A DNA stretch of 64,000 bases from a virus (IMGVR_UViG_2740892441_000001); one strand, 5' to 3'. Counted from the first letter of the stretch, positions 1,784 to 44,458 are shown. The notes: generated by a model not told the origin, from the letters alone. Made by a program: numbers and translations.

Positions 1784-1830
1784 AACAAATTGTTTTCTTG
1801 TTGGTGTTAATTATCGTTGTACGAATAAGG
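1784..1830 (-). promoter_or_regulatory. conserved early-promoter-like motif (minus-strand reading GATAAT-AACACCAA-AAGAAAACAATTTGTT)
   Basis: About 40 bp element recurring upstream of at least 10 minus-strand genes; contains GATAAT -10-like hexamer and AACAA.TTGTT palindrome. Confidence 0.35.
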
Positions 1831-1844
1831 CGTCAAAGTGGAAA

Positions 1845-1932
1845 GTTGCGGTAGCCGGACGGGAACAGGTGGGTTTTTCGGTTGCCTGGAGGTAAGAGGT
1901 TGGTGTTTTTAGCCTGCGGGAAACAGGATGGT
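1845..1932. repeat. about 80 bp repeat element (GGTAGCC..AGGTGGGT..TTTTCGGT..GCCTG..AAGAGGTTGGT..GTTTTT), second copy at 5505-5590
   Basis: Two copies alignable by eye; each looks like an internal tandem duplication of a ~30 bp unit. Confidence 0.4.
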
Positions 1933-1937
1933 CATTT

Positions 1938-1961
1938 AAGGCCACCAATGCTGGTGGCCTT
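1938..1961 (-). terminator. hairpin AAGGCCACC-AATGC-TGGTGGCCTT, putative terminator or processing site
   Basis: Same hairpin family at 2409-2432, 11238-11258 and 15421-15441, always between a gene end and the next promoter motif. Confidence 0.35.
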
Positions 1962-1966
1962 AGTCT

Positions 1967-2248
1967 TTAGTGGAGCAGACCGATGTCGATGGTATCCCCT
2001 GAATCCCCCACACGGATCATCAGCATGGCGAAGGCGTTTAGTGGATAACTGGCGTGCCATTCAGGGAAGCGGTCATCTCGCATGAAGTCGGCAATGTCGT
2101 AAACGCAGCCCTCAAAGTGGAAGAATCGCGTGCTTACCTGCTCGTCATATTCCACATGATCCATTTCTTGCTGTTCTGTTTCCGGCAAGTCCAGCCATGA
2201 TTCAAGGAATACATTTTGTGCTTTAGGGGTAATGGTGAAATCAGTCAT
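1967..2248 (-). CDS. hypothetical protein
   Basis: Start moved to internal ATG with GAGGA RBS; the longer track ORF would read through the promoter motif. Confidence 0.4.
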   Translation of the reverse strand: MTDFTITPKAQNVFLESWLDLPETEQQEMDHVEYDEQVSTRFFHFEGCVYDIADFMRDDRFPEWHASYPLNAFAMLMIRVGDSGDTIDIGLLH

Positions 2249-2267
2249 GAGCATATCCTCACTGCGT

Positions 2268-2325
2268 AAACATATTGTTTTCTTGTTGGTGTAATTATCG
2301 CAGTGTAGATAAGGCATAAAAGAAG
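2268..2325 (-). promoter_or_regulatory. conserved early-promoter-like motif
   Basis: AAACATATTGTTTTCTTGTTGGTGTAATTATCGCAG matches the recurring motif. Confidence 0.35.
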
Positions 2326-2583
2326 TTAATACAGGCTGAATACACAAGAAAGGTTCTGGAAGTTGATAGCCAGGTTTCAAACTAACCTTCGGTTATTAAA
2401 AGTCATTTAAGACCACCAATGCTGGTGGCCTTAATAATTATCGCCCGATTACGCTAAGGATCTTTTCCTCAACTGATTTGTTGTTGCGACTAAACTGCCT
2501 TGCGTATCTGATGACAGAAGAGGCGTTTTGCTTTCTGACCATCTCGGCTCTTTCCTTCAGGCGTTTCTTGAAATCGCCCATAT

Positions 2584-2976
2584 TTACCACCAGGCGCAGA
2601 ACGTCAGTCTGTTATTGTGAAAGTCGTAATTATTAATCAGCTCTTCTACAAGTGCTTTCAACTCCCCCACGTCACGCCAGTAATCTTCGTCATAATCCAT
2701 GCTGCCAAAGTAAAAACCTCCAGTCGGCTCGAACTCATCCTGAGTAGGCAGAAGGGCTTCGCAATTACTCTCGTTGAGACGAATCAGAGTAGCCTTTAGA
2801 GCGCAAAGATCATTCTTTGTAATTTCTAAAAATTTAAAACTATCAACTTTGCCTACGTTCCGATTCACCCACCCAACAAGCGCATTAAACTTATAAAAAT
2901 AGCCTACTTCCTTTCTGGCTGCTTCGTTATTCAGATCGTTTTTTGGCTGCGTCTCGATATAGATATCAAGTCCCAT
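2584..2976 (-). CDS. hypothetical protein
   Basis: 130 aa ORF with AAGGAAA RBS. Confidence 0.55.
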   Translation of the reverse strand: MGLDIYIETQPKNDLNNEAARKEVGYFYKFNALVGWVNRNVGKVDSFKFLEITKNDLCALKATLIRLNESNCEALLPTQDEFEPTGGFYFGSMDYDEDYWRDVGELKALVEELINNYDFHNNRLTFCAWW

Positions 2977-3100
2977 GATGGTTTCCTTATTAAGTATTAA
3001 GTTGCTTCAGTGAAAGCATTTTCACAAATCAGATAAGGCAGAAAACAAATTATTATCGGGCATAAGAAAATGGCGCGGTTTACGCGCCATTTAAAGAGGA

Positions 3101-3496
3101 TTAAGCGAATACGCTTTCAGGGATTAAGGTATCAGCAGGAATGCCGGATGTAATACGCAGACCGTACTGGCCAATCCAGGTGGTGCTGGTGTTCAGGCTG
3201 GAGGCGAATACGGAATTAACCATATTCATCATGGTTTCAAACACCTCTTCATCAACCTGGCGGAAGTAGTTCTCGATTTTCAGCAGCAGCGGGTCAGTTG
3301 CATCGAGAATGGACTGGTATTGAGTCGCGTACTCGCCGCCGGAGGCATCACCTTTACGCACGATCGTACTGGCCTGTACTTCGGCACCAGTTTCGGTGTT
3401 GTACGTAACAACGGTGATTTTTGCCACATTCTTACCTTCGGCGGTTTCAGAGGCATAGTAAACATCAACTGTCAGTTTTTCGCGTTTAACGGTCAT
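3101..3496 (-). CDS. hypothetical protein
   Basis: Start refined to internal ATG with GGAGAG RBS (131 aa). Confidence 0.5.
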   Translation of the reverse strand: MTVKREKLTVDVYYASETAEGKNVAKITVVTYNTETGAEVQASTIVRKGDASGGEYATQYQSILDATDPLLLKIENYFRQVDEEVFETMMNMVNSVFASSLNTSTTWIGQYGLRITSGIPADTLIPESVFA

Positions 3497-3539
3497 TTCA
3501 CTCTCCGTAGTGTATTGGTTATTTTTATATTCTATGATC

Positions 3540-3555
3540 GTAAGTATGTACTTAC
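3540..3555. promoter_or_regulatory. palindrome GTAAGTA-TG-TACTTAC (operator-like motif B)
   Basis: Member of dispersed ATAAGTA-N-TACTTAT palindrome family. Confidence 0.3.
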
Positions 3556-3560
3556 AAAAC

Positions 3561-3588
3561 AAAAAAGCCCCGTAAGGATGGCGGGGCT
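3561..3588 (-). terminator. rho-independent terminator (GCCCCG..CGGGGC with U-run on minus strand)
   Basis: GC hairpin adjacent to A-run on plus strand; lies just downstream of gene 3623-3934. Confidence 0.5.
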
Positions 3589-3622
3589 GTCGTACTGTCG
3601 ACTAATTACCACTTGCACATTA

Positions 3623-3934
3623 TCAGGCTATTGCCATCACTGATGCTCTCTGAATCTCTTGCTGGGCCACGCGGTTAACTTCCATCAAAGCCAGTTCGAG
3701 CTGATGTTCCGGCCACATTCTTTGAAACGCCATCCAGCCTTTTCCACGCTGGCGGCGAACATTCATTACATAACGAGTAAAGGTGTTTTTATCGAAAGAC
3801 ACCGCTGTTTCACGGAACAGACGAATAGAGGTTCCATTGGCAACGATGTCCAGCAAAGTTAATTGAGCAACCAGCGCAGGCTTCTCTTTTCTCTTCTGGT
3901 CTTTGTCCAGACCAAGAACCAATGATTTTTTCAT
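3623..3934 (-). CDS. hypothetical protein
   Basis: Start refined to ATG with GGAG RBS (103 aa); promoter motif upstream. Confidence 0.45.
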   Translation of the reverse strand: MKKSLVLGLDKDQKRKEKPALVAQLTLLDIVANGTSIRLFRETAVSFDKNTFTRYVMNVRRQRGKGWMAFQRMWPEHQLELALMEVNRVAQQEIQRASVMAIA

Positions 3935-3945
3935 CACAACTCCGT

Positions 3946-3986
3946 AAACAACTTGTTTTCTCAATGGCGTAAATAATACCAGTAAG
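3946..3986 (-). promoter_or_regulatory. conserved early-promoter-like motif
   Basis: AAACAACTTGTTTTCTCAATGGCGTAAATAATACC. Confidence 0.35.
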
Positions 3987-4087
3987 AAAACGGCTACAAA
4001 GCATATTGATCAGGTGCATGAGCGATATGCAGGTTCTTCCCTGCGGCTATAGAGAAATTAAGCCAGCAATGCTGGCTTTGGTTGGGG

Positions 4088-4417
4088 TTACTCGAATACT
4101 TCAAGAAACTCCTGAACGTCCCAATGCTGGACGAGGTGAAGATAGACCTTAGAAATCACGTCATTTTCGCTATCGCATGTGAAGTAGTACTTCTGGCTGC
4201 GGTTGTATGTGTCCACACAAAATTCGCTCATATCCATAAAGTCAGCATCTTCACCCATGTCGCAAATCATCAAAGCAGGTGCGTCATCACGAGTCATCAG
4301 CTCAAGCACCCACCGCGAATTGATCAGAGTGGAAGACCAACCTTCTAACTCATAAAACTGATCAAACTCTTTTTGAGTTAATTTCTTGATTTGGTTGATG
4401 TCGATATTTGCAAACAT
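4088..4417 (-). CDS. hypothetical acidic small protein
   Basis: 109 aa, D/E-rich; promoter motif upstream. Confidence 0.5.
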   Translation of the reverse strand: MFANIDINQIKKLTQKEFDQFYELEGWSSTLINSRWVLELMTRDDAPALMICDMGEDADFMDMSEFCVDTYNRSQKYYFTCDSENDVISKVYLHLVQHWDVQEFLEVFE

Positions 4418-4429
4418 AAATCAATCCTT

Positions 4430-4478
4430 AAACAACATGTTTTCTTATTGGTGTTATTATCGCAATAACGCATAGGCG
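4430..4478 (-). promoter_or_regulatory. conserved early-promoter-like motif
   Basis: AAACAACATGTTTTCTTATTGGTGTTATTATCGCAATAACG. Confidence 0.35.
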
Positions 4479-4784
4479 AAAAAGGATTTTATTCCGGTGA
4501 ATGTGGTTTTGGCAGTGAGTTTTCAGGTTCAGTACCGAGTACACTTTTTACATTATTCTGATTTAGTAGCCGAAGGTGGCTGGTGGGCAGAATAATCATC
4601 TCCCCGAAAACCTACTGAAATCGATTGTGACCCGCTGACTGTCTGGCACAATTACGCTGTAGTTGGGCATTCAGAGGGAATCCAGCGGTAAGTAAGTTCG
4701 CCTGCACGTGAGCGCCTCTCTTCTTCCCGCACATTACAGGTGGATAGCCGCAACTCTCCCTCTCGCTATACCGGTACGCCGCCG

Positions 4785-4910
4785 TTCCTGAACCGGCATC
4801 GAGCCTTTTCCCGAAATCCACACAGGCAACTCGACCGTTTCCCTGAAAACCTCCAGCCGTTCCCCGAAGGCAACCCAGCCGTTTCTGTAGCGGGATGCAG
4901 CCTTTTCCCT
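4785..4910. repeat. six tandem ~20 bp repeats (A)GCCGTTTCCC(T)GAA
   Basis: Direct repeats visible by eye; same motif at 1145-1235. Confidence 0.5.
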
Positions 4911-5089
4911 GTATGGACCGAAGGCTGACCGTAGGGGTGTTACGGGGGATAAAATCAGTAGTTGAATAAATACGAAAAAGGAGGCGACACCCCTCCTTCC
5001 CTCCCCACTTATACATACCTGGCTTCTTCGCTATGCATGTTGTGTTTTCTTCGTGTTTTATCTGTTTCAACCTCTCTATAGGCGTTAAT

Positions 5090-5500
5090 GCTCACTCCTT
5101 CCAGAACGTTCTATACGGCAACTATTTCTGTTGGTGAATTGGGTGTGTTGTTTTCTCTGTCGGTGTATGTGGTTTCGTTCGTTTTGCGGTGGTTCTTCTA
5201 TAGGGTGTTCTCGTCGTTTTGGTGATTGTTCTTCTCCGTCTATGGAGTAATGGCAGGTGGGCGATTCCTTTCGTTATTGTGTTTGAGTTGTTTGTCTGGA
5301 GTGCGTGAAGGGCTTTTGTAGTTATTCGTGTATTGGGTAATGGCGTTTCCCGTGATTGTTCTGTTTCGTGTCTTTTGGGATTGAAGAATCCTTGCGGTAA
5401 CAGGCTTCGTTGGGGTTTCAGTGATTCTGGTGTTTCTTCGCTGTTTGGGTAATGGCGTGTCGTGGGTATCGCGCGTATGAATGTTTTCGGATTGCCTGTG
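5090..5500. repeat. G+T-rich low-complexity tract (plus strand), ORF-free
   Basis: Extreme strand compositional skew; the only ORFs are low-complexity minus-strand artefacts. Confidence 0.45.
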
Positions 5501-5504
5501 AAAG

Positions 5505-5590
5505 TTAGGTTGGTTGTCCGGTAGCCTGGGAAGAAGAGGTGGGTCTTTTCGGTAGCCTGCCATAAAGAGGTTGGTTGTTTTTGGGAATGG
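5505..5590. repeat. second copy of the ~80 bp repeat element seen at 1845-1932
   Basis: Alignable by eye to 1845-1932. Confidence 0.4.
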
Positions 5591-5980
5591 CATATGCGTT
5601 ATTTAGTTGTTTTGTTATGCCTGAAAATAAGTTGTTTATATGGTTATGTAACGCAACGGGAACGATTTTGAGCGTGTGTTTTTGTTGGTAGTGTGTTGGG
5701 TCGTCTGTGGTGAAAATTGGACGCTGTGGCGCTGTCTGCTGCGTAGGATTGCGGGTATAAGAAGTAATGTGTGAAAACGTCAATTTTTTAGACCAAATCG
5801 GGTGAAAGCGTTGACGTTTCGTTGATCTGTTATTCAGTTGTTTTCTTGTTTGTATAAACAACTATAACCTATTGATATTTAAGGGTGTGATTGCAGGTAT
5901 GGAAGGGGAGTAGTGGCGATCAACGGATTCTTATAGAAAAGAATCAAATTGTGACCGCCATTATCAATAAGTTGCAACCG

Positions 5981-6550
5981 TTAGTTGTTCAGATAAACAT
6001 TTGGAACACGGACGTAGAAGTTCCTGTCACCGGTAAGTTCCAGAGTAATGTTAATGTCATTACCATTGTCTAGTGTAGCCGTTGCTCTATAGAACTTATC
6101 CGTCACCTTGTCCTCTATTGTCACCTTCATACATTTTGGTGCAGTCGAACCGTTATTCTCTTTCAGAATAGTTGTCACGAGAGGGCAGGCTGCTTCTTCA
6201 AGAGCAACCTCGTCCTTGTGTGGGATGCCGATGAAGATAATCCAAGCCAGCGACGCAACGATTATGATAAATGGCACTCTGCTGCCTTTTGTAATAGTCG
6301 CGCGCTTCCAGAGATAGACAGGCAGGAGGAATACCCCCCATAGAATTGAAGGTGGTTCACAGCCAGACTCCGATAGAGCCATTCTGTCAGCTACTAACAA
6401 ACCGATGGTAGTTACACCCCCAATTATAATAGCGTAATTGGTATACTCTTCCGGCAATACTCCAAAGAAGAAAGGCATGAACGCTAGAATCCACGCATAA
6501 ATGTTATTCAGAGGTTTTGTTTGTTGGTTCTGGGTTTCCATCACATCCAT
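5981..6550 (-). CDS. hypothetical membrane protein (several hydrophobic segments)
   Basis: 189 aa with multiple hydrophobic stretches. Confidence 0.5.
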   Translation of the reverse strand: MDVMETQNQQTKPLNNIYAWILAFMPFFFGVLPEEYTNYAIIIGGVTTIGLLVADRMALSESGCEPPSILWGVFLLPVYLWKRATITKGSRVPFIIIVASLAWIIFIGIPHKDEVALEEAACPLVTTILKENNGSTAPKCMKVTIEDKVTDKFYRATATLDNGNDINITLELTGDRNFYVRVPNVYLNN

Positions 6551-6702
6551 TCCATCACATAAAAATCGCTTTTATATATTATCAATTTTCTCACTTGTAT
6601 AACCTAAATACGCATCCGTTTATCAATCCACCTTCCACAAACATCAGCTTTGGCTATGAAAAATGACAATCTCAAAGTGAAACCATTATCATAGGATAAC
6701 GA

Positions 6703-6888
6703 TTAGATGAGATGGTCTAATTCATCATCTATCATCGCTTTAACACTTGAGTCATTAACCCCGTATTGATTTATGAGCCGTTTCAGCTCCGGTGAAAACT
6801 GAAGGTAGATATCGTGGGCGTTTTTCACTGTAGGTTCAACGCCACGCATTTCAAGCGCCTTTAGTAGATATGAGTCTTCTTTAAGCAT
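6703..6888 (-). CDS. hypothetical small protein
   Basis: 61 aa ORF in operon context. Confidence 0.35.
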   Translation of the reverse strand: MLKEDSYLLKALEMRGVEPTVKNAHDIYLQFSPELKRLINQYGVNDSSVKAMIDDELDHLI

Positions 6889-6924
6889 AAATTCTCCGTT
6901 ATCTAGTATGAAGCGATTGCCGGA

Positions 6925-7233
6925 TTACCATTGCCAGCACTCAAGCCCTTCAACGACCGGTGCGCCACAATCAAAATGTACAGAGTCAAAGCCTACATCA
7001 AGTACTTTCTGAATGTTCGCAATCGCGCCCTCGGATATACCATATCGACGCAACTCATCTTTCCAGTCATCGTCCTGTAACCCGGCGTGGACAATGCAAC
7101 CGTACTCAATTTGTGAAACCCAATCCAGCTCATTGCTTGCGATCATGAATCGGCGAGCATCTTCCTCTGATGTATGAGATGAGCTGATCAATGCCACCTG
7201 GTAGGCTTGGGTAATGTTCAACATTTCAACCAC
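6925..7233 (-). CDS. hypothetical protein
   Basis: 102 aa ORF; promoter motif pair immediately upstream. Confidence 0.5.
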   Translation of the reverse strand: MVEMLNITQAYQVALISSSHTSEEDARRFMIASNELDWVSQIEYGCIVHAGLQDDDWKDELRRYGISEGAIANIQKVLDVGFDSVHFDCGAPVVEGLECWQW

Positions 7234-7238
7234 TCCGA

Positions 7239-7303
7239 AACAATTTGTTTTCTTATGTGGCTTATTATCTCAATCAACAAAAGGCAGAAAACAAATTGTT
7301 TTA
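7239..7303 (-). promoter_or_regulatory. two adjacent copies of the conserved promoter-like motif; the hairpin that usually follows is missing where host-like DNA begins
   Basis: AAACAATTTGTTTTCTTATGTGG...AAAAGGCAGAAAACAAATTGTTTT. Confidence 0.35.
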
Positions 7304-10714: not shown

Positions 10715-11104
10715 CTACATCACAGGACAATCATCAAACTCGCCACTTCTTGCGTCGTTGATAATGTGAGTGATCACACCAAACACGGCATTGCTGCCCG
10801 TGCATCCATCATCATCCTTTGGCAATGCTTCCTTCTTACCAGTTCTTAAATCCTCCAGATGCTGACGTGGATACTTCCGGTATCTTTTTACGCGATATTC
10901 CCCATCCAGAGCACATACAAGAAGAGATCCATCAACAGGAGTGAGTGAGGAATCGACCACCAGCAATGCACCCTGCAATATTCCCTCACGATGATGACTA
11001 TCAGCCGCCCTCATGAAGTAGGTCGCTGAAGGATGTCTAATTATCTGCTGATCAAGAGAAATACGGCTCTCTGCATAATCCGCCGCAGGAGATGGGAAGC
11101 CCAT
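10715..11104 (-). CDS. humD: UmuD'-like S24-family protein lacking the cleavable N-terminal arm (HumD-like)
   Basis: Starts M-GFPSPAADY, aligned to Gly25 of E. coli UmuD (the RecA-mediated cleavage point); in-frame stop 5 codons upstream excludes an N-terminal arm; Ser and Lys of the S24 dyad retained; LexA box upstream. Confidence 0.7.
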   Translation of the reverse strand: MGFPSPAADYAESRISLDQQIIRHPSATYFMRAADSHHREGILQGALLVVDSSLTPVDGSLLVCALDGEYRVKRYRKYPRQHLEDLRTGKKEALPKDDDGCTGSNAVFGVITHIINDARSGEFDDCPVM

Positions 11105-11122
11105 AGCGTTTTCACCTCAAAA

Positions 11123-11142
11123 TACTGTTTATATATACAGTA
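11123..11142. promoter_or_regulatory. LexA (SOS) box TACTGTTTATATATACAGTA
   Basis: Near-perfect CTGT-N8-ACAG palindrome about 20-40 nt upstream of the humD-like start. Confidence 0.65.
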
Positions 11143-11208
11143 TACATGAAAGAAACCCACTTAGTGCAACCGATCGAGACTCTTCACCAAACAAAAATAT
11201 TTTTCTCA

Positions 11209-11258
11209 AATAAGAAAAGGCAGAAAACAAATTGTTTAAGGCCACTAGTTGTGGCCTT
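11209..11258 (-). promoter_or_regulatory. promoter-like motif plus hairpin (AAAAGGCAGAAAACAAATTGTTT + AAGGCCAC..GTGGCCTT)
   Basis: Same composite element as at 15399-15441. Confidence 0.35.
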
Positions 11259-11274
11259 AATGGGGGAGGGGTGC

Positions 11275-11799
11275 TTATTGGCTATGGCTAAAAATCAAAT
11301 GAGACACTTCATGTGGTTGTAGCTCGTCAAGATCCGGGGCCACAAAACCTTTTCCGAAAGACTTCACAAGTGATTCACCAGCCGCATCATTGTCACCTAT
11401 TACGCGAAAGTCATACGGCAGCATTGCCAGTTGACGACGTAATCCTGCTGAGAAAGTCGAACCTAACAGCGCCCACGAATTTCCGCCCGCGTTGTGCACT
11501 GCTGCACTTTTAAAAATCGACTCAGTTATCCATATCGGTCCATCTTTTAAAGGAAGATAGGTTCCCCATAGTAGCTGTCTGCCGTGCGCTCGTGTGAAAT
11601 ACCGGGCCATCTTCGGATTGCTATGCTGCTTAGGAGCGCCTGGTCTGTATGTCTGATACCCGGCCAACATCCCATCAAACCTGTATAGAGGGAACGTAAC
11701 AACTCCTTCGCTTTCATCGATCCACTGTCTATATGGATGCACATCATGGCGGTAGTTGCGAGTTAGCAAATGAGCTTCCAGCTTTCCAAATTTGGTCAT
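11275..11799 (-). CDS. Toprim-like domain protein (tentative)
   Basis: Start refined to ATG with GAGGGA RBS; conserved Glu and VIGDNDAAGE (DxD) motif resembling Toprim. Confidence 0.4.
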   Translation of the reverse strand: MTKFGKLEAHLLTRNYRHDVHPYRQWIDESEGVVTFPLYRFDGMLAGYQTYRPGAPKQHSNPKMARYFTRAHGRQLLWGTYLPLKDGPIWITESIFKSAAVHNAGGNSWALLGSTFSAGLRRQLAMLPYDFRVIGDNDAAGESLVKSFGKGFVAPDLDELQPHEVSHLIFSHSQ

Positions 11800-11812
11800 A
11801 ACTTCGCATCCC

Positions 11813-12667
11813 TCATAACACTTCCCATTTATCACCATATTTCTCCATAGCTCTTAGCCAGTAAACATGGCCACTAGGCATAGTGATGTGAGGCTCGCCA
11901 AACTCTTCTCCATGCACATCAAAGATGTCCCCAACAGAGAATTGGGGGATTTCTACGCCGTTTTCACCTATATGCGTAATTCGTATACGTTTCGGTTGAA
12001 ATTGTCCACCTTTGAGCGAGTTGTTCACTGCTCTGGCAATTTTCTCCCGCAATTGCTGCGTTACGTGGTACTGAACCGCAATATCCCGCAACTCGTTCAC
12101 CAGTTCTCTAATCTGGTGATCTTTAAGCTCATTATTTGGGTGATGGGCAACAACTCTGGTTAATTCACCCTTGTCTTTTGCTCTTACGTATGCAGCTCTT
12201 GTGCATTCGACCCATGTATTACCGCCTACATTAACTTCGTAGATTAGGCTGGACTTATCTGTCAATTCGGAACAAATACGGGCCGTGGTCTGGCAACTAG
12301 AGCATTCGCAGTTATCGCGGAAACCGTGGTCTACTGGCTGCGGTTTCACATCATCAACTTTTTCTACCCTATTGGAATTTAAATACTTCGAAGCCTTGCT
12401 ATGCCAATCGCTGGTTTTAGGATCTTGTCCATCCATCAAACGCCAGGCTTCAGCGATTAACTCATAACTAGTGACTGTAGCTTCCTGCGCATCACCAATA
12501 AGTCGTGTAATCTCTCTTTCAAGCCGACCGCCTAGCTCTGTTTTAGTGCAATGTTCTGACCAATCGCCAGCCTCAAGCAGCGCGAGAATGCTTAAAATAT
12601 CGTCCAATAGAACGGTAGTATTATCGACTTCCTTCTGAAACTCACCGGCTACTGATTTATGCATCAT
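11813..12667 (-). CDS. hypothetical protein with Cys cluster
   Basis: 284 aa ORF; CECSSC motif; operon with flanking genes. Confidence 0.5.
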   Translation of the reverse strand: MMHKSVAGEFQKEVDNTTVLLDDILSILALLEAGDWSEHCTKTELGGRLEREITRLIGDAQEATVTSYELIAEAWRLMDGQDPKTSDWHSKASKYLNSNRVEKVDDVKPQPVDHGFRDNCECSSCQTTARICSELTDKSSLIYEVNVGGNTWVECTRAAYVRAKDKGELTRVVAHHPNNELKDHQIRELVNELRDIAVQYHVTQQLREKIARAVNNSLKGGQFQPKRIRITHIGENGVEIPQFSVGDIFDVHGEEFGEPHITMPSGHVYWLRAMEKYGDKWEVL

Positions 12668-12966
12668 TCGTCATCCTCATCCGAGTCATCCTCATCACAG
12701 GATGAGAGTAGTGGGTTAGTCATTCGCCCTACTTGAGTGGCGTAGCCACGCCGACAGAGATTGCGCAGCACACTGTATATTTCGAACATCTCGGTTCGTT
12801 CATCGCCAACATCAAGCTCAGATGCTATAGCGTGGCATTCAGTCGCGAGAGCCGATATTTTCTGAAATAACTCTGCTTTATTCACTCTTAGACTCCTGCG
12901 GAGGTTCTGGTAGCGGCATCCAGTGAGTTGCTTGCTCAATACCATTACCCGGCTTAATCGTTGCAT
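12664..12966 (-). CDS. hypothetical protein (start uncertain)
   Basis: 100 aa ORF whose 5-prime end overlaps the upstream gene in another frame; true start may be internal. Confidence 0.25.
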   Translation of the reverse strand: MQRLSRVMVLSKQLTGCRYQNLRRSLRVNKAELFQKISALATECHAIASELDVGDERTEMFEIYSVLRNLCRRGYATQVGRMTNPLLSSCDEDDSDEDDE

Positions 12967-13612
12967 CTCCGCGCCGAAAGGTGCTTCCGGTATAGCGTGC
13001 GGAGCATATTAGCGGTTCAACCAGAGAGCTATCGAAATTCACCGAAATAAGCACGTTCTGGCCCTTTTCAGGCATTCGCTCACTACAGCTTATCCAACCA
13101 TCCGGAGTTACCGGATTGTTGCCAGCCTCATACGCGACCCTTATCCAGTGCATAAGCATTTCAGTACTTACACATCCACAATCAACATCAATTTTGTCAT
13201 GCTGCTGTTCCAGCCATTGCTCAAAAGTTAACTTGTAAGTTTGGCTTACAGGTTTGGCTTCCAGTTCTGCTATGTGATTTTTGGCTGATTCCAACTCAAT
13301 CGACAATTTTTCCAACTGCTCTTTATGATTTTTATATTCCTGATATGCGTGCCAAGACTGACCTTTGCGCACACTATCAGTGATATCAGCAACCTGCTCT
13401 GGTGTTAGCGTGGTCAGTGGCTGTGCTGGAAAAATCATCACTTGCCCGGCATCCCAATCAAAACCCGCCTGAATTGACTGAACCTCAACTGATGGTGTTG
13501 AACCGATGCGACCAGGCGAATGAACAACGATCGTTACATCCATATCGCGACGATGGCTGTGGTTGTTGGACAAAATACGATTCACCGACTCAGAAAATTT
13601 GGAAAATTTCAT
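12878..13612 (-). CDS. hypothetical protein with DUF551-like C-terminal motif (tentative)
   Basis: Start set at MKFSKF ATG forming an ATGA overlap with the upstream stop; C-terminal HWMPLPEPP-type motif. Confidence 0.45.
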
Positions 13613-13935
13613 GCTGACCCCTCTTTCTCTCCCCGGATAATTCTGTTGCACACATCCACACACTCGTCGCAGATGAAAACGGCGTCCCCAGCAATTAACT
13701 TTTTGACGGCGTACTGGGATTTGTTGCAGAAGCTGCAACAAAGTGTTCGCCTGGCTGATAAGGATGGAGCGCCAGATGTCAGCCGCTCCATATCGTTCTT
13801 GCGACGCAATATCACACGGCTGAACTCAACCAGTTTCTCCGGGGATATCTCCTCCTCCTCCGTAGCGAGCGTCTCTAGTCGTTCGAGTATGTGGAAGGCT
13901 TTTTCCTGGGTAATTGCAGAATGCGATGTGGTCAT
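13609..13935 (-). CDS. small protein with ClpX-type C4 zinc-binding domain
   Basis: C-terminal [31 protein letters not shown] closely resembles the ClpX N-terminal zinc-binding domain (LYCSFCGKSQHEVRKLIAG..YICDECVDLC, recalled from memory); no AAA+ module follows. Confidence 0.55.
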
Positions 13936-13936
13936 C

Positions 13937-14548
13937 TCACTCTCCTTTGATGCGAATGCCAGGGGCGCGTGGCACATTAACTTCCACGATGCGCACTGTT
14001 GGTTTGTACATCTCAATCGCTGTCAGCCAGTCAGCTCCTGTCATGCGCTTTTCCGCATCGCCATTAGTCCACTGAACCGGTACACCAATAGCCTTCATCG
14101 CGATTTCTATTTCCCCGGCAATGGCGCTTTTTCCGCAACCAGTAAAACCAGATACAACGACCAGAACTTCACCTTTGGCTGGTTTTATTTCCCGTGCTTC
14201 CAGTTCTGCAATGCGCTTACTTCCATCCGAGATAACGCCCTCGTAATACTCACGCTGCTCGTTGAGTTTTGATTTTGCCAACTCCAGTTGTTTTGTTAGT
14301 TCTGCAATACGACAAACATCGTTGATACGCGTTTCCTCTAATGCGTTGCTCTCATCCAGTAGCGCCAGCACGGTTTCTGGTCCGGCCAGAAATTTGAAGG
14401 CGTTGAGGGCATCAATATCAACACCGCTATCTTTAAGTTCCTGTTCGCTTATCAGATCATCATCAACTGGCAACATTAACAGGCGTTCCATTGCCGGAAT
14501 TGCACGCTCTGCCGCCTCACGCAGTGCCTGATAGTCAATCTTGCTCAC
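13937..14548 (-). CDS. hypothetical protein, paralogous module shared with 14545-14988, short Walker-A-like GFTGCGKS
   Basis: 203 aa; shares VLALLDE..LE.T.I..CRI.EL segment with the adjacent gene. Confidence 0.5.
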
Positions 14549-14988
14549 TGGATGACTCCTTTACGAAGCAGTTCAGCAATACTTACGCATATCTCTGCGC
14601 CTCTAATCAGCCCCGGAACGTTCTTGTTTGGCCCAACTTCACCATCAACAAAATCAATCATCGCGTTACGAGCCATATCCACGCCCTGCGCACGTACTTC
14701 AGCCAGAAAAGCATCGGTAGCTGGAGTTTCGCTGTGGTGCAGGGCATCGTTGATAATCATTGCAGCAACTCCGGCCTGCCCTGCATCCGTGACCGACACA
14801 TGCTCAAGAGTTACGGCCATTGCGTGTTTCAGCCCAGCGTTCTCTGCCACCAGCGCAGCGAGATTAGTCTCAAGCTCTGAAATTCGGCACGTGGCATCAA
14901 TATTTGTGTCCTCCAGCCGCTTAATTTCATCCAGTAGTGCCAGCACATCCTGCGGATGCTCTTCGACCTCTTCAAATTCTTCTTCCAT
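14545..14988 (-). CDS. hypothetical acidic protein, paralogous module shared with 13937-14548
   Basis: 147 aa; 4-nt overlap with downstream gene. Confidence 0.5.
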   Translation of the reverse strand: MEEEFEEVEEHPQDVLALLDEIKRLEDTNIDATCRISELETNLAALVAENAGLKHAMAVTLEHVSVTDAGQAGVAAMIINDALHHSETPATDAFLAEVRAQGVDMARNAMIDFVDGEVGPNKNVPGLIRGAEICVSIAELLRKGVIQ

Positions 14989-15022
14989 ATATCACCTCAA
15001 ATAAGTGGTTTGCTGCCTGAGC

Positions 15023-15352
15023 TTATTTTGCTTTGAGCAACTTCATCGCTTCGTCAATGCGTGATTGTGTCCCTGCGTTTGGCTCCACTACCTGAAGGCG
15101 GCGGGCATCTTCAAGAAGTTTCGCAATCATTTCTTTAAGTACTTCGTTATCGTTATTCATGAGCGTGCTCCTGTCAGTTAGCTTTGAGTAACGCGCCGCG
15201 ATTTGCATCTCCACGGTTCCGTCATGCAATGCAACAATCTCTCGGACAGCAACCGGGTGGTTGATGTAGTCTTCGCCGGTATATTTTCTTTTCTGACCAA
15301 CGCCACCATGAGCGCCAGCGGCGAACATATGAGCTTCGGAAATACTAGACAT
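15023..15352 (-). CDS. short HD-domain protein resembling the N-terminal half of Mesh1/SpoT-type (p)ppGpp hydrolases (tentative)
   Basis: AHGGVGQKRKYTGEDYINHPVAV...ALHDGTVE matches the H...HD signature; only 109 aa. Confidence 0.45.
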   Translation of the reverse strand: MSSISEAHMFAAGAHGGVGQKRKYTGEDYINHPVAVREIVALHDGTVEMQIAARYSKLTDRSTLMNNDNEVLKEMIAKLLEDARRLQVVEPNAGTQSRIDEAMKLLKAK

Positions 15353-15360
15353 TCTTAACT

Positions 15361-15441
15361 CCGTTGTTTTCTAGTTGTGGTTATTTTCACAAATAAGAAA
15401 AGGCAGAAAACAATTTATTCAAGGCCACAACTTATGGCCTT
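15361..15441 (-). promoter_or_regulatory. promoter-like motif plus hairpin
   Basis: TTGTTTTCTAGTTGTGGTTATT...AAAAGGCAGAAAACAATTTATTC AAGGCCA..TGGCCTT. Confidence 0.35.
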
Positions 15442-15471
15442 TATTTATTCATGCCGAAGGATTTGTAGCGT

Positions 15472-15852
15472 CTAATTGCCGGATAAAATGGGGTGAGGTG
15501 CTTGCCAGTAGGCCCCACCGTTCCATGTGAACCCCATGCGAATAAGAGTGTTTATTGCGGCTTTGGTAGACTCCGATTCGACACTGGCTTTTCGAAACTC
15601 TTGAACCTCTTTCGCCAACTTGTATGTAATTGTGCAGGGGACGATTGCAGCCCAGCCTTTCTCATGACTGTTAATGACCATCTGGATGTGACCATCCAGA
15701 ATAGGTTGATCAGGCATGTTATTGAAAACGTCTGCCTGTTTTTGAATGTGAAGAAAAAGCCTTGCCAGCTCCATTTGCTCACTACGAGACAAGGGATTAT
15801 CAAGAGGGCTTTTTGCAAAAGCGGCTATACGCTGTGCGTCAATGCCAAACAT
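15472..15852 (-). CDS. hypothetical protein
   Basis: 126 aa ORF, start/stop overlap with upstream gene. Confidence 0.45.
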   Translation of the reverse strand: MFGIDAQRIAAFAKSPLDNPLSRSEQMELARLFLHIQKQADVFNNMPDQPILDGHIQMVINSHEKGWAAIVPCTITYKLAKEVQEFRKASVESESTKAAINTLIRMGFTWNGGAYWQAPHPILSGN

Positions 15853-16556
15853 CAGCGCACCTCACCATCTTTATGGCTGGAGTTAACTTCCGCCATTAAA
15901 TGTCTGACGTAATCGACAAGAGAGCCACCTGGTGGAATCTGGCATTCCTCAACTAACTGGAAGTAGATATCAGCAGCATTACGTGTATTGCTACCCGCGC
16001 ATATTCTTTCTTCCCGAAGTGCATGAAGCTCGTTGATCAAACGGTCACACTCTCCGTTACGCTGATCCACAACAGCCTCAAGTTCTGCGACGCGTTCACC
16101 TGGCGTCTTACCTTCTTTGCGTTGGATGGTAACGACGAAATCGCCCATTTCAGGGACGTTGTAATCCAGCTCAAGGTAGTTTTTGGCACCGCTGCGGACG
16201 AACTCACCCGCGAACATGGTGGCGAACATCGCAGAGGCCATTGTGCCGTTGAAAAGTGACTCCAGATCTAACGGAGTCCCGGCAGCCAGAGCCTCTTTTG
16301 CTGTATCCATTGCATCCATGAACCGATCAAACTCATTGGCGCGCTTTTCCAGGTCTTTCCATTGCTCGCTCCAACGTTTGGCAACGAAGTCTATGAATGT
16401 TTTCGCGGATTCATCAAAATCCCCCTCAAACTTAACGATGCCTTTATCAATAATGATCTGGCCTACCGCATCCTCTGCATAACCTTTCAATGTAAACTTG
16501 AAAGGAAAATCGGAATGGCCTGTGACGTTAAAATGCTCTAACTGGAGGTTGCTCAT
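15852..16556 (-). CDS. hypothetical protein
   Basis: 234 aa ORF. Confidence 0.5.
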   Translation of the reverse strand: MSNLQLEHFNVTGHSDFPFKFTLKGYAEDAVGQIIIDKGIVKFEGDFDESAKTFIDFVAKRWSEQWKDLEKRANEFDRFMDAMDTAKEALAAGTPLDLESLFNGTMASAMFATMFAGEFVRSGAKNYLELDYNVPEMGDFVVTIQRKEGKTPGERVAELEAVVDQRNGECDRLINELHALREERICAGSNTRNAADIYFQLVEECQIPPGGSLVDYVRHLMAEVNSSHKDGEVR

Positions 16557-19947: not shown

Positions 19948-19995
19948 AAACAAGTTGTTTTCTTATTGGCTTTATTGTGATGTGACATAAAAGGG
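19948..19995 (-). promoter_or_regulatory. conserved early-promoter-like motif
   Basis: AAACAAGTTGTTTTCTTATTGGCTTTATTGTGATG. Confidence 0.35.
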
Positions 19996-20652: not shown

Positions 20653-20745
20653 GTGTTTTCCTTTTGTTATTTGTCAAAACAAGTTGTTTTCTAGTTAAAT
20701 AAATTGCTTACGCAAAGACGGTCAATGCATAGGCACTAACAGCCG

Positions 20746-22176: not shown

Positions 22177-22756
22177 ATAAACTCCTGAATCAAGCGCCGC
22201 GCCGTTTTTTCCTCGCGCGTGCGCACACACGTGCGTGTAATAATTATTAAAATAAACAAATTACTTCCCAGTACAGGTTTTTATAAACCTGAACTGAACG
22301 AACGAAGTGAGTGAAGTTCACCTCGAACGAAGTGAGAGGTTGTCTTTTCAGGTAATACTCTCCCAGGGAGGTGAGTATAAAATTCCTCACCAACCTGGTC
22401 GTTTCATAACCTGAAAAGCTATGGTCTAAGTCTACTGCCAGCTTAGACTTGGGAAGTTATGGATGACAGCACCCCAGAACCGAGATCTTCCCACACTTTA
22501 TGAAGGGGAGTACTGGATTCAACCTCTCGAAACACCCCAGACTCGACAATCATAAAGTGACCCTTGTCTCCGCTCACTTTGGTTCCCCCTTCCCCGACAC
22601 CTAAACGGCACCGGTTCTACGCTGGTAGTGAGCTTTTTTAAACCTGACGCCAGTGACGCTTACCCCCACCCATCAGGTCGAGTCTCCAGTCTACGACTGG
22701 AAACTATCAGATCTTAGCACTTACAATTCATCTTATGAATAGTTTGTACTTATCTA

Positions 22757-31663: not shown

Positions 31664-31700
31664 TTTAAACAAGTTGTTATCTTATGTGTTTAAACAAGGC
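31664..31700 (-). promoter_or_regulatory. promoter-like motif upstream of nrdB
   Basis: GTTTAAACAAGTTGTTATCTTATGTGTTTAAACAAGG. Confidence 0.3.
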
Positions 31701-40692: not shown

Positions 40693-40752
40693 TAGATCCA
40701 AATAAGAGATCCCAAGTAAGATCAAATAGAAGATCCAAAGAGATCCCCGATC
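40693..40752. promoter_or_regulatory. GATC (Dam site) cluster, six sites in about 60 bp
   Basis: GATC repeated at 10-13 bp spacing; typical of Dam-controlled origins. Confidence 0.45.
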
Positions 40753-40792
40753 GCCTCTAGCCGTTGCGGTTACTGGTCTGAAAGGGTGTTGC

Positions 40793-40900
40793 CATCCACT
40801 ATGGAGAGCAAAGAAACCTCTGTAGAGAGCTGAATAACCGCTATGAAGAGTAAAACAACCACTCTGGAGAGCTGTATATATCCACTGTAGAGAGTAGAGC
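40793..40900. repeat. iteron array 1 (about five ~21 bp direct repeats, ACCACT.T.GAGAG-type)
   Basis: Direct repeats at regular ~21 bp spacing. Confidence 0.5.
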
Positions 40901-41006
40901 ACATTGTCTTTTATGGATAACTTAATGACTTAATTCTTCATTAACATACTGATATACATAGATATATTTTAAACTCTACTCTTAGTCATGATTCTTATGT
41001 CCTTAA

Positions 41007-41015
41007 ATATCCACA
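41007..41015. promoter_or_regulatory. DnaA-box-like ATATCCACA
   Basis: 8/9 match to TTATCCACA. Confidence 0.4.
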
Positions 41016-41053
41016 GAAGAGTAGAGTTACCTGTTCTTGAAATCCTCTGATTT

Positions 41054-41062
41054 TTATCCACA
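41054..41062. promoter_or_regulatory. DnaA box TTATCCACA
   Basis: 9/9 match to consensus. Confidence 0.5.
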
Positions 41063-41171
41063 GGCCCGATCCAGTAATTCAGATCACAAAGAGAACCAAA
41101 GAGACCCATAAAGACCCAATAAGATCCCCGCCCACCTCAAACCGTTGTGCCATCTGCCTTCAGACATGATC

Positions 41172-41300
41172 GATATCCACTATAGAGAGCGAATAATCCA
41201 CTATAGGGAGCAAAGCAACCACTATAGAGAGGAGAAAAACCACTATAGACGGTAGGATAACCGCTGTGATGAGTGCTACTATCCACTGTAATCAGCAAAG
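41172..41300. repeat. iteron array 2 upstream of repA (six ~21 bp direct repeats ATCCACTATAGAGAG-type)
   Basis: Regular direct repeats ending about 35 bp before the repA start. Confidence 0.6.
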
Positions 41301-42392: not shown

Positions 42393-42404
42393 CCCAACCA
42401 CTGT

Positions 42405-42875
42405 AGTTAGTAGTAAGGCTCACTATCCACTGTAGTGAGCCTTACTTATATCTGTAATTCGCTATCCACTATAGTGAGTATCGTTATCTGTTGATAACCA
42501 CTGTAGGCAGTAGAATGCAAATACTGAATCAAATGTTAGTGATCACTAACACTGATGAAACAAGGGCTGCGAGGTTAGTGGTCACTGGGTATCTTGGAAA
42601 ATTTACTGTCTATAGTGGTTGTTGTCGCCCTCATCTTTGAGCGTATCCACTGTGGCGAGTGGATATCCACTGAAAACAGCAAAGGCTTACTCACCATAGT
42701 GGATACCCGCTGGACATCTCACTCCAATACTCACCATAGTGGTTGTTTGATGCGAATGAAAGGCTGTCTACTCGCTACAGTGGTTAGCAGATATGTAGGA
42801 AGAGAGGACTGCAGACCACAGTGGATAATGAGCTGATACGAATGCGGTGAGCTGGCTACTCACCGCAGTGGTTGG
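42405..42875. repeat. iteron array 3 downstream of repA (about 12 copies of CCACT(A/G)TAG in both orientations)
   Basis: Same core as the upstream iterons; resembles P1 incA-type copy-control arrays. Confidence 0.6.
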
Positions 42876-42880
42876 TGCTA

Positions 42881-43093
42881 TTAGTGTATTTTCTTCAACA
42901 GGCCCCAAAGTGTTCCGGCTTTTGTAGTCAGTTTTCCTGTTTCTGGATCGTACATACGCCATTCACGCCGCTGGTGGACGATATACCCATCTTCACGTTC
43001 CAGACGCTCAAGAATGCCAGGCTGCTTGAAACCCTTAGCACGCCAGTATCCGCTTGTTTTCTCGATTTCCAGACCTGCCAGTGTTAATGCCAT
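42881..43093 (-). CDS. hypothetical small protein
   Basis: 70 aa ORF. Confidence 0.3.
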   Translation of the reverse strand: MALTLAGLEIEKTSGYWRAKGFKQPGILERLEREDGYIVHQRREWRMYDPETGKLTTKAGTLWGLLKKIH

Positions 43094-43428
43094 TATCCAA
43101 CCTCCTTGCAGTCATCGAAAAGGTAGCTTTGCTGAGAAGCGTGCACGCCATAGAAGCCCTTGTATTTGTTGTATACGAAGTGGTCTTCTCCGACGCCGGT
43201 TAATTTGCCATTACGGTTTGTGAGATATGGGGATGACAATACTCGATCGTCACGCACAACATAGAACTGGTCGCCGCTGTCTACGACCATCGCTCCATAT
43301 GGTGCTTTTATGACGTCGGTAAGAGCGCCATTCTTAACGTCGGCTACAGACATTTCACACTGATAAACAGTGGTGTCGGCCACAACGATCGAGGAAAGGA
43401 ACAACAGAGCGAATGGGATGGCCTTCAT
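43093..43428 (-). CDS. hypothetical secreted protein (N-terminal signal peptide)
   Basis: MKAIPFALLFLSSIVVA hydrophobic leader. Confidence 0.45.
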   Translation of the reverse strand: MKAIPFALLFLSSIVVADTTVYQCEMSVADVKNGALTDVIKAPYGAMVVDSGDQFYVVRDDRVLSSPYLTNRNGKLTGVGEDHFVYNKYKGFYGVHASQQSYLFDDCKEVG

Positions 43429-43643
43429 GCTGCCACCTCTTTGATTACATCAAATGCTGAATTAAATACGAGCACGATAGCCAAAGCGTTTATGACTACA
43501 TCGTTCACCGGGGAAAAGACTTTACGAATGACACCAGTGAAAATGCAGTCGATGACAAAAGCTATTGACACGATGAGTAACAAGTATTCAATAAAAATCT
43601 TCATGATAGGTAGATACTAACTTATATAAATTTTACTGTAAAC

Positions 43644-43919
43644 TCACTCAAAAGTGCTGATGCTTAAAATACGCTCAAGATGTGCGGCATCTTCATCACT
43701 GATTTGTTGAGTCTCTTCTACGTACCAACAGTTGCCGTTATGCCAACAAACACCATCATCATCAACCATCACTGAATCAGCGTCATAACCTGTATATCCA
43801 ACGAGAATACGCTGGATCAGCGCGTCAGTTTCTTCGTCGTTAAGGCCATCGGCTTTGACCATAAAAAGCGGAAACACGTCATAGACAGTGCTGGTAACGA
43901 TTCGAACTAAAACTCTCAT
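43644..43919 (-). CDS. hypothetical protein
   Basis: 91 aa; AAGGAAAAACAC-ATG initiation region. Confidence 0.5.
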   Translation of the reverse strand: MRVLVRIVTSTVYDVFPLFMVKADGLNDEETDALIQRILVGYTGYDADSVMVDDDGVCWHNGNCWYVEETQQISDEDAAHLERILSISTFE

Positions 43920-43974
43920 GTGTTTTTCCTTTTGTGGTTAGTGTTTACTTATTTTGTTAGTTATGAATAGGCGA

Positions 43975-44400
43975 TCAATCTTCTTGTTTAGGGAAAAACT
44001 GTTCAATAACTCTGTCAACGGCTGTGTCTATATGGAGTAGATGCCACACAACCATATCTTTGCTTCCCATGCCTTGTGTGAATATCACGTCATACTTACG
44101 CCATGCGCAGTGGAACCAATATGCTGAGTCATCAATTGGTAAATCCTCTCCCGCCTCTTTGAAGTATTTCAGCAGCATTGCTTGCTCTGCCGTTGGCGTT
44201 GGGCCTATTTCCTGAGCGTACATACGGATAAATCGCTGCCAGTCTGTCTCGTCGGGGGTTGGATCTGGTGGGGTCATTTCTGCGATAGCGTTTCGTAGCT
44301 GATGTGCCCAATCAGGTTCAGGAAAGCCTTTTGATACTTCATCATCAATAACATCCAGAGCCACGTTTGCGGCATCGTAGAGTTTCTTAATAGCTGTCAT
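43975..44400 (-). CDS. hypothetical protein
   Basis: 141 aa; promoter motif upstream. Confidence 0.5.
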   Translation of the reverse strand: MTAIKKLYDAANVALDVIDDEVSKGFPEPDWAHQLRNAIAEMTPPDPTPDETDWQRFIRMYAQEIGPTPTAEQAMLLKYFKEAGEDLPIDDSAYWFHCAWRKYDVIFTQGMGSKDMVVWHLLHIDTAVDRVIEQFFPKQED

Positions 44401-44416
44401 GTTTTCTTATCCTTTT

Positions 44417-44458
44417 AAACAAATTGTTTTCTTAATAAGATAATTGCGATAAAAAAGG
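44417..44458 (-). promoter_or_regulatory. conserved early-promoter-like motif
   Basis: AAACAAATTGTTTTCTTAATAAGATAATTGCGAT. Confidence 0.35.

Follow-up and report, generated by a model that had tools for sequence, protein, structure and literature searches.

A 13-bp palindrome, AAACAA-N-TTGTTT, recurs in front of genes, at a set place in 15 or more predicted promoters, in a 64,000-nucleotide stretch of viral DNA, IMGVR_UViG_2740892441_000001 (hereafter the window, meaning that whole stretch), and we consider that it probably serves as a dispersed operator of a dimeric, two-fold-symmetric DNA-binding repressor, whose binding and repression we infer. The repressor would most likely be encoded by the phage-plasmid itself. 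The sites are conserved, enriched and symmetric, they are phased with −10 hexamers, and the genes downstream of them are silent in the lysogen. A dedicated regulator had been one of three explanations offered in the initial annotation of this DNA, the others being a conserved structure of the 5' untranslated region (5'-UTR) and recombination-prone module boundaries; it is the best-supported of them in view of the symmetry, the −10 phasing, the placement over −35 regions, the cross-genus conservation and the lysogen silence.

The first 20 kb of the window are 94–97% identical to the Escherichia coli SSU5/pHCM2-type phage-plasmids CMS-2020a, PhiR41_1 and Cyrano (pLF82) and to many PLSDB plasmids, with Salmonella phage SSU5 and Klebsiella phage-plasmids as more distant kin, and the window can be assigned, by its sequence, to the SSU5/pHCM2-type phage-plasmids of E. 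coli. Set against the Cyrano annotation, nearly all of its genes lie on the minus strand, and three regions can be distinguished: accessory genes; nucleotide metabolism, recombination and replication; and integrase, repressor and cobT. Several of the genes for replication and recombination are T4-like, and a part of the window matched 1,338 PLSDB plasmid records, relatives of Yersinia pestis pMT1 among them.

Enrichment and predicted promoter placement of the palindrome and lysogen silence of the genes behind it

The initial annotation had described a highly conserved element of about 40 nt at eleven positions, and all 11 of them carry the element. The near-palindrome seen within it is the common core of all copies, with one arm mostly extended to AGAAAACAA. 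The ~40-nt consensus holds in a subfamily of four or five promoter cassettes; elsewhere the shared part is 13–17 bp, and the 26-nt form GATAATWAACACCAAYAAGAAAACAA, put forward as the general consensus, had a single match (1790–1815) at up to 3 mismatches. When one mismatch was allowed, 13 palindromes (8 perfect and 5 with one mismatch) were found in the window, compared to 0.58 expected, and none of 100 shuffles reached this number. The 9-mer AGAAAACAA occurred in 18 copies compared to 1.25 expected. In an alignment of ten copies, invariant or near-invariant columns were found only within AAGAAAACAAnTTGTT, and in 63 non-redundant sites the information content was symmetric across the two arms, a mismatch in one arm never being compensated in the other.

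Every site lies in 5' gene-proximal non-coding DNA: on a deliberately crude map of open reading frames (81% coding), 10 of the 13 sites were non-coding (P = 9e-6), and the remaining three fell in reading frames that were over-extended at their 5' ends. The number of sites is 13–16 in the window and ~20 in the whole Cyrano genome, including those at terS, parA and dnaB. The palindrome does not fit the LexA box CTGT-N8-ACAG, and the SOS boxes described below are a separate feature.

The initial annotation had proposed a search for the motif in related phage-plasmids, taking its confinement to this genome as contrary evidence. The same palindrome is present at orthologous promoters in Cyrano, Salmonella phage SSU5 and Klebsiella pJN2-26, so that it is not confined to this genome, and every window site with an orthologous intergenic region retains it. 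The part of the Cyrano genome outside the window has further copies ahead of terS (two), at the parA promoter (one) and ahead of a DnaB-type helicase gene (one), and Y. pestis pMT1 keeps six sites on its remaining backbone. In seven orthologous intergenic regions, 77 of 84 columns were invariant in the palindrome and 243 of 574 in the flanks, a statistic that is biased because the relatives' sites were located by motif search. The parA promoters of Cyrano, SSU5, pJN2-26 and two distant relatives (L132 and L134) also have the palindrome, and the layout of this promoter, TTTACA-17-TAGGCT-15-palindrome, is kept even in distant relatives; parA and dnaB promoters carry the palindrome in elements whose ParA-partner protein is 48–64% identical. 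Among the IMG/VR matches listed, the motif clusters in SSU5-sized contigs, contigs of 90–112 kb are dense in the palindrome despite 0–26% nucleotide similarity to these genomes, and the half-site TTGTTTTCT also occurs as direct repeats beside the palindrome.

Regarding the position relative to promoters, which like the transcription starts were predicted from sequence, the copies were categorized into two classes. At 7 of the 10 class-A sites in the window (centres at 1789, 2274, 3952, 4436, 7244, 19954, 20683, 31673, 44423 and 59922), and at most SSU5 and Klebsiella sites, a −10-like hexamer (GATAAT, TATTAT, CACAAT or TACATT) lies 11–14 nt upstream of the palindrome, usually preceded by TGn, and a Shine-Dalgarno sequence and a start codon follow ~11–25 nt after the palindrome. 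The GATAAT that had been read as −10-like was therefore correctly recognised and is frequently TGn-extended. If transcription is assumed to start ~7 nt after the −10 hexamer, the class-A palindrome covers ~+8 to +20. In class B (centres at 3049, 7295, 11231 and 15414), the palindrome abuts a 25-nt module, TCTGCCTTTTnTTrwTTGwGAwAAT (4 copies compared to 0 expected), which ends in a TGn-extended −10; since the palindrome is fused to the 5' side of this module, it would lie over the −35 region at ~−44 to −32. Two of the originally cited copies, near 11209 and 15361, thus differ in architecture, the palindrome standing upstream of this conserved promoter module. The 9-nt extended arm faces the core promoter in both classes, and for this reason AGAAAACAA is in the sense orientation relative to the genes in 14 copies and antisense in 4.

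Owing to their weak −35 hexamers, the modules escaped a generic sigma-70 scan, and the −10 hexamers were found instead by an anchored search. Most modules have TGn together with a hexamer whose second base is A and whose sixth is T, and a poor −35, and in this they resemble extended −10 sigma-70 promoters with an operator over the start. The definition of such promoters does not include the additional sequences of the cassette subfamily (1789, 2274, 4436, 7244 and partly 3952), which also shares TTTnnnGCCTT, with its conserved GCCTT at ~−30, and the initial transcribed sequence ACACCAAyAAG. This extra likeness accounts for the earlier impression of 40 conserved bases. Decayed remnants of class-B palindromes upstream of the cassette promoters suggest that these promoters descend from a double-operator ancestor.

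The expression of the genes behind the palindrome was evaluated by using per-gene RNA-seq values of E. coli LF82(Cyrano), whose background median is 9.8 (PMC9928086, supplementary table). Despite near-consensus −10 hexamers, 13 of the 15 genes directly behind a palindrome read 5.7–25.5 (individual values of genes behind palindromes: terS, 7.1; helicase, 21; cobT, 7.8; C58, 5.7; nrdB, 12.9; tciA-like, 7.0; C87, 7.1; C93, 6.3; C101, 7.5; C105, 12.8; C106, 12.2; C108, 5.7; C110, 6.7; C111, 25.5), and the only palindrome-led unit that was clearly on in the lysogen was the par operon (50–89). None of the strongly expressed genes has a palindrome; they comprise repA, C43, C81, C99 and C117/118, together with the toxin-antitoxin pairs and the pair of integrase and XRE repressor. 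Silence of near-consensus extended −10 promoters in the lysogen is the pattern predicted by repression.

Cyrano is induced 39-fold by ciprofloxacin (PMC9928086), and canonical LexA boxes were found at 11125–11140 (CTGTTTATATATACAG), just upstream of an S24/UmuD-like gene (11104–10715), and at 61972–61987 (CTGTATAAGTAAACAG), in the divergent region between the integrase gene and a CYRAN_43-like gene. The induction and the LexA boxes make a release step triggered by the SOS response plausible. The CYRAN_43 homologue (~61400–61950) encodes 184 amino acids and is expressed ~720-fold above the prophage background in the LF82 RNA-seq.

In the mechanism that we propose, the recognition unit would be approximately AGAAAACAA, with the promoter-proximal arm extended, bound on double-stranded DNA and set into host sigma-70 promoters at ~+8 to +20 or at ~−44 to −32, one promoter having both. 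A protein at either position would exclude or trap RNA polymerase. One regulator could in this way silence ~20–25 transcription units of lytic orientation during plasmid maintenance (accessory cassettes, nucleotide metabolism, replication, the par operon and the terminase/late operon), and release of that single protein would switch the silenced units on together.

Several points weigh against this proposal. Besides the bias of the conservation statistic, the promoters and transcription starts on which the class positions depend are predicted ones, and no binder was confirmed among the element-encoded candidates examined. A distance of only 7 bp between the centres of the core arms is unusual for a helix-turn-helix dimer. 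Despite its site, the parA operon reaches 5–9 times background, which could reflect autoregulation, and an activator-dependent class of promoters would likewise be silent in the lysogen. In addition, plaque-forming SSU5, which is without the integrase/XRE-repressor module, keeps all sites, indicating that the sites matter outside classical lysogeny too or that the binder is another conserved protein.

Probable duplex DNA recognition and competing explanations

Compared to dinucleotide shuffles, the predicted leaders had fold z-scores of −0.24 to +1.16 with no consistent structure, the minimum free energy of the 16-nt core was 0, and an Rfam scan gave no family match at the gathering threshold at any site. 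The conserved 5'-UTR structure suggested in the initial annotation is not supported, given these values, the uncompensated arms and the antisense orientation of 4 of the 18 half-sites; neither the conserved structure nor the curated family that would mark a cis-regulatory leader RNA was indicated by the fold z-scores or by Rfam. Since the leaders show no structure beyond that of shuffles and match no Rfam family, the arms are symmetric and uncompensated, and the extended arm occurs in both orientations and the class-B copies lie upstream of −35, the data favour a two-fold-symmetric protein that recognises duplex DNA.

The palindrome might also be read as RNA, its leader sequence AGAAAACAAnUUGUUU, 4–25 nt before the Shine-Dalgarno sequence, being bound by a translational repressor encoded by the element. 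The FljA-family protein CYRAN_114 would then keep ribosomes off the mRNAs and make these unstable, in the manner of FljA on fliC or T4 RegA on early mRNAs. FljA-type proteins block fliC mRNA translation (PMC2652032). The CYRAN_114 gene (Cyrano 100780–101301) lies ~0.8 kb beyond window position 1; its product, of the family annotated as repressor of phase-1 flagellin, matches Pfam Flag1_repress over the full length (1e-80), has a weak Hfq-like stretch, is conserved at 75–78% identity in SSU5, pJN2-26 and pMT1, and is expressed in the lysogen (18 in LB overnight culture, log2 ~7–8 in other conditions). It may serve in host flagellin repression or as the binder of such an RNA site. The class-A palindromes, situated in the predicted leader 11–25 nt from start codons, agree with the sense-strand-specific 5'-UTR element that a translational operator would be, whereas the class-B copies, which follow a terminator-like hairpin, lie upstream of the −35 of their own promoter, the extended half-site points with transcription in some copies and against it in others, and one SSU5 copy is placed between convergent genes. 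Moreover, exact reverse-complement symmetry would be purposeless for a single-stranded RNA site, no hairpin is formed and, to our knowledge, the fliC leader does not resemble the motif. We therefore regard an operator acting on RNA as improbable.

Positive control would also account for the silence of the genes in the lysogen, if the palindrome, or TTTnnnGCCTT at ~11 nt upstream of −10, marked promoters that need an activator or an RNA polymerase modifier made by the phage only after induction; the MotA-dependent middle promoters of T4 and the Lpa-dependent late promoters of P1 are models for such control. The poor −35 hexamers and the failure of the sigma-70 scan to call the promoters, the conserved GCCTT at ~−30 and the T4-like replication and recombination genes of the element are all in line with it, and class-B palindromes centre near −38, close to the position of a class-II activator. 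An activator is thus compatible with the geometry of class B but fits the position of class A poorly: most copies are downstream of both the −10 and the start, where activators normally do not act, and many of the −10s are TGn-extended and near-consensus, which usually makes them activator-independent. No activator, MotA or AsiA homologue turned up, although no systematic search was made for one. Our estimate is that activation is an unlikely function of the sites. It is very unlikely that a nucleoid protein or a transcription factor of the host (IHF-like, H-NS or other) binds the sites, with the motif being an adaptation to host silencing or architecture. The motif is AT-rich, loosely resembles the IHF core WATCAANNNNTTR and does not vary between hosts of the genera Escherichia, Salmonella, Klebsiella and Yersinia, all of which have these proteins, and cGATAAtTAA at the −10 may resemble the H-NS nucleation motif. 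However, IHF and H-NS sites are not exact palindromes, no palindrome exactly fits the IHF consensus WATCAANNNNTTR (four degenerate copies are within one mismatch and the consensus palindrome is at two), and the ~20-fold enrichment is, for the window and among the IMG/VR matches listed, specific to this element family.

Finally, the promoter cassettes could be homology patches for swaps of accessory genes, in which the palindrome would have no regulatory role. The regions 1–7300 and 11000–16000 are mosaic, four or five cassettes share ~40 nt, and homology to Cyrano and PhiR41_1 breaks at 4438–4445 and 15378, within 10 nt of sites; 4 of ~30 breakpoint endpoints fell at sites, compared to ~0.2 expected. 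Nevertheless, a 13-bp sequence is too short for efficient homologous recombination, the two-fold symmetry is unexplained by it, and recombination can account neither for the −10 phasing nor for the palindrome being equally conserved at the non-mosaic core genes nrdB, cobT, dnaB, parA and terS. The recombination-prone boundaries of the initial annotation were therefore treated as a side effect, a role with which the breakpoints on sites agree, and a linker function as the whole explanation seems extremely improbable.

Individual sites and other features of the window

All sites described here are on the minus strand. The class-A copies include putative promoter/operator modules at 1783–1815 (−10 GATAAT at 1810–1815, palindrome AAACAATTTGTTA at 1783–1795, start codon at 1762), 2268–2299 (TGC-GATAAT at 2294–2299, palindrome AAACAATATGTTT at 2268–2280, start codon at 2254 or 2248), 3946–3978 (TGG-TATTAT at 3973–3978, perfect palindrome at 3946–3958, start codon ~11 nt downstream), 4430–4461 (TGC-GATAAT at 4456–4461, palindrome AAACATGTTGTTT at 4430–4442, start codon at 4417), 19948–19979 (CACAAT at 19974–19979, perfect palindrome at 19948–19960, start codon at 19929) and, before a cobT-like gene, 59916–59946 (TGC-TACATT at 59941–59946, palindrome AAATAATTTGTTT at 59916–59928, start codon at 59896). 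A perfect palindrome with the extended arm AGAAAACAACTTGTTT lies at 20677–20692, 24 nt before the start codon of a TciA-like gene (20652), another with an extended arm lies at 44417–44432, downstream of a terminator-like hairpin (start codon at 44400), and the palindrome AGATAACAACTTGTTT at 31667–31682 is located between nrdA and nrdB (nrdB start codon at 31641).

Among the class-B modules, that at 3018–3055 has a degenerate palindrome, TAATAATTTGTTT (3043–3055), directly 5' of the promoter module TCTGCCTTATCTGATTTGTGAAAAT (3018–3042), with the start codon at 2976. The module at 11200–11258 consists of a hairpin, AAGGCCAC..GTGGCCTT (11238–11258), a perfect palindrome (11225–11237) and the promoter module (11200–11224), and is situated upstream of the LexA box at 11125–11140 and the S24/UmuD-like gene. 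At 15364–15441, the hairpin (15421–15441), the palindrome-like GAATAAATTGTTT (15408–15420) and the promoter module (15383–15407) are followed by a half-site AGAAAACAA (15364–15372) and a start codon at 15352. The hairpin, previously assigned to several copies, precedes the two class-B copies centred at 11231 and 15414. The predicted promoter at 7238–7301 has two operators, one perfect palindrome (7289–7301) over the −35 and a second (7238–7250) beyond TGA-GATAAT (7264–7269); the two centres are 51 bp apart, and the start codon of a DUF5983 protein is at 7224.

A lone half-site AGAAAACAA at 57705–57713 is directly 5' of the Shine-Dalgarno sequence of an AAA-ATPase (CobS-like) gene (start codon at 57693), and an orphan palindrome, AAACAACTTATTT, is found at 5625–5637 in a strand-asymmetric, poorly coding stretch, the same place being kept in SSU5 and pJN2-26. 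This stretch (4450–5900, minus strand) is A/C-rich and has dubious low-complexity reading frames only, and it may be a non-coding RNA or a long leader; the composition window 4001–6000 had a GC skew of +0.127 and an AT skew of −0.183. The earlier tally of copies can thus be extended by the palindromes at 3043–3055, 5625–5637, 7289–7301 and 59916–59928 and the half-sites at 15364–15372 and 57705–57713.

The AAGGAAAAACAC-ATG context, which had been noted downstream of the element, is real (9 copies compared to 0.75 expected) but is an independent ribosome-binding-site context that also occurs without a palindrome. Written as AAGGAAAAACACATG, this conserved translation-initiation context lies on the minus strand at 31639, 38670, 43917, 50258, 57691, 20650 and other positions. 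Adjoining the RepA gene, iteron-like arrays at 40694–41249 are composed of 21-bp repeats (consensus CCACTATAGAGAGC...) and 12-bp repeats (consensus AGATCCAAA...), which are presumably replication iterons. The Rfam cspA thermoregulator was matched over its full length at 52064–52481 on the plus strand (189.7 bits, E = 1.6e-50), indicating a cold-shock-protein gene with a thermosensing leader whose orientation is opposite to that of the lytic genes. Three tRNA genes (Ser-TGA, Thr-TGT and Asn-GTT) are clustered at 62969–63216 on the minus strand, beside the integrase module. At 22200–22340 (minus strand), direct repeats of CACTTCGTTCG are followed by an alternating purine-pyrimidine tract, CACGCACGTGTGTGCGCACGCGCG; this region is intergenic and corresponds to the area of CYRAN_81, a 44-amino-acid product expressed in the lysogen.

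Candidate binding proteins and related multi-operator systems

The XRE-type repressor (60459–60842, plus strand; 100% identical to CYRAN_45) is an unlikely binder, as it appears to have a different palindrome of its own and SSU5, which is without the gene, keeps the sites. The palindrome of its control region, GGTAAG-N2-CTTACC, is conserved in the Klebsiella relative and has one arm mismatch in pMT1, the protein there being 56–65% identical. In the window it is located at 60413–60426 within the divergent region 60208–60458, between the XRE gene and a small minus-strand gene leading into cobT. This region carries GGTAAGTGCTTACC and further GGTAAG/CTTACC half-sites, and resembles an additional operator system, local and separate from the dispersed palindrome. 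CYRAN_117, a small, lysogen-expressed protein with a ribbon-helix-helix-like pattern, was downgraded since its putative β-strand residues vary among orthologues and the motif is constant. CYRAN_37, CYRAN_123 and the two ParB-domain proteins, all silent in that state, gave weak winged-helix or no Pfam signals, and CYRAN_43 is strongly expressed yet absent from SSU5, pJN2-26 and pMT1.

The leading candidate is the small ParA partner CYRAN_29, encoded directly after parA and outside the window, which would then be a partition adaptor doubling as a global silencer of the lytic units; we hold this specific assignment to be rather doubtful. Of the palindrome-controlled operons, parA-C29-C30 alone encodes a plausible DNA-binding protein, and its being the one such operon expressed in the lysogen is the pattern expected of an autoregulated repressor. 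In the CYRAN_29 family, SRTMS and FTRSDVIRAAI stay unchanged even where overall identity falls to 48%, and the putative DNA-contact segments are invariant wherever the palindrome is. SSU5, which is without the XRE repressor, keeps C29 and all sites. The 7-bp unit spacing and the mixture of direct and inverted units would suit a ribbon-helix-helix protein. The AlphaFold monomer of this family had a predicted local distance difference test (pLDDT) score of 62.6; Foldseek against the PDB gave no fold match, a profile search against PDB sequences gave no match, and neither did hhalign against the ParG and omega sequences that were used. Against CYRAN_29, pMT1 keeps six sites without the gene, and a separate 18-nt inverted repeat by the par operon could be the real centromere.

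This perfect 18-nt inverted repeat, GACCTGCTTCTGTATATA / TATATACAGAAGCAGGTC, is located just after the par operon (Cyrano L003 31157–31213). A related large inverted repeat with TATAAATA was observed upstream of the terS palindromes at the end of the Cyrano genome. The inverted repeats of Cyrano are candidates for a centromere, a pac site or a late-promoter element.

The proposed system functionally resembles three known ones, P1 C1, L5 and KorB/omega, and is a member of none of them by sequence or by the defining features tested. P1 is likewise a plasmid prophage with operators scattered round the genome, in which separate operons are under one repressor, as proposed here, and it shares the SOS inducibility seen in the 39-fold induction of Cyrano by ciprofloxacin (PMC9928086). 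In the window, the P1 operator ATTGCTCTAATAAATTT had no match at up to 3 mismatches, and no C1 homologue turned up, none having been searched for. The P1 C1 operator is an asymmetric 17-mer, in contrast to the symmetric 6-1-6 palindrome described here. The gp71 stoperators of L5 are similar in that ~20–30 copies of a 13-bp site are spread genome-wide over short intergenic regions, many of them in transcribed leaders, with a flank bias relative to the direction of transcription and a joint silencing of the prophage, the last again proposed here. L5 stoperators are asymmetric and strictly oriented, whereas in the present element the core is symmetric, only the 3-nt arm extension is oriented, and some copies lie over the −35 and not downstream of the start. 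L5 also differs in its host phylum, and its repressor is unrelated.

The operator of KorB of RK2/IncP, TTTAGCSGCTAAA, has the same format as the palindrome, that is, 13 bp with 6-bp arms and one central base. KorB and omega (pSM19035) also have sites at many promoters, including the par operon's own, and the omega heptads are units 7 bp apart, with direct repeats occurring too in distant relatives of our element. On the other hand, the KorB sequence is unrelated and its lone match in the window, at 55251, is not at a palindrome site, both ParB-domain proteins that the element encodes are silent in the lysogen, the ParA-partner candidate is without detectable similarity to the ParG and omega sequences used, and the targets here are phage lytic genes, not transfer or replication genes. 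A description of the motif was not found in the searchable literature, a coverage that does not extend to a possibly relevant 2026 preprint on SSU5/pHCM2-type phage-plasmids.

SSU5/pHCM2-type phage-plasmids are common in Enterobacteriaceae and their carriage of resistance genes is rising, and the control of their lysis and lysogeny is essentially uncharacterised. One recognisable cis-element at nearly every promoter of lytic orientation defines a regulon and corrects the annotation of gene starts and promoters. The 19-bp duplex AGAAAACAAnTTGTTTTCT is a direct handle on the master regulator by DNA pull-down, electrophoretic mobility shift assay or chromatin immunoprecipitation. The prediction is that one protein jointly controls the accessory cassettes, replication, partition and the late operon. 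If that protein were CYRAN_29, the phage-plasmid would have a KorB/omega-style circuit in which the well-segregated plasmid state is coupled to not being a lytic phage.

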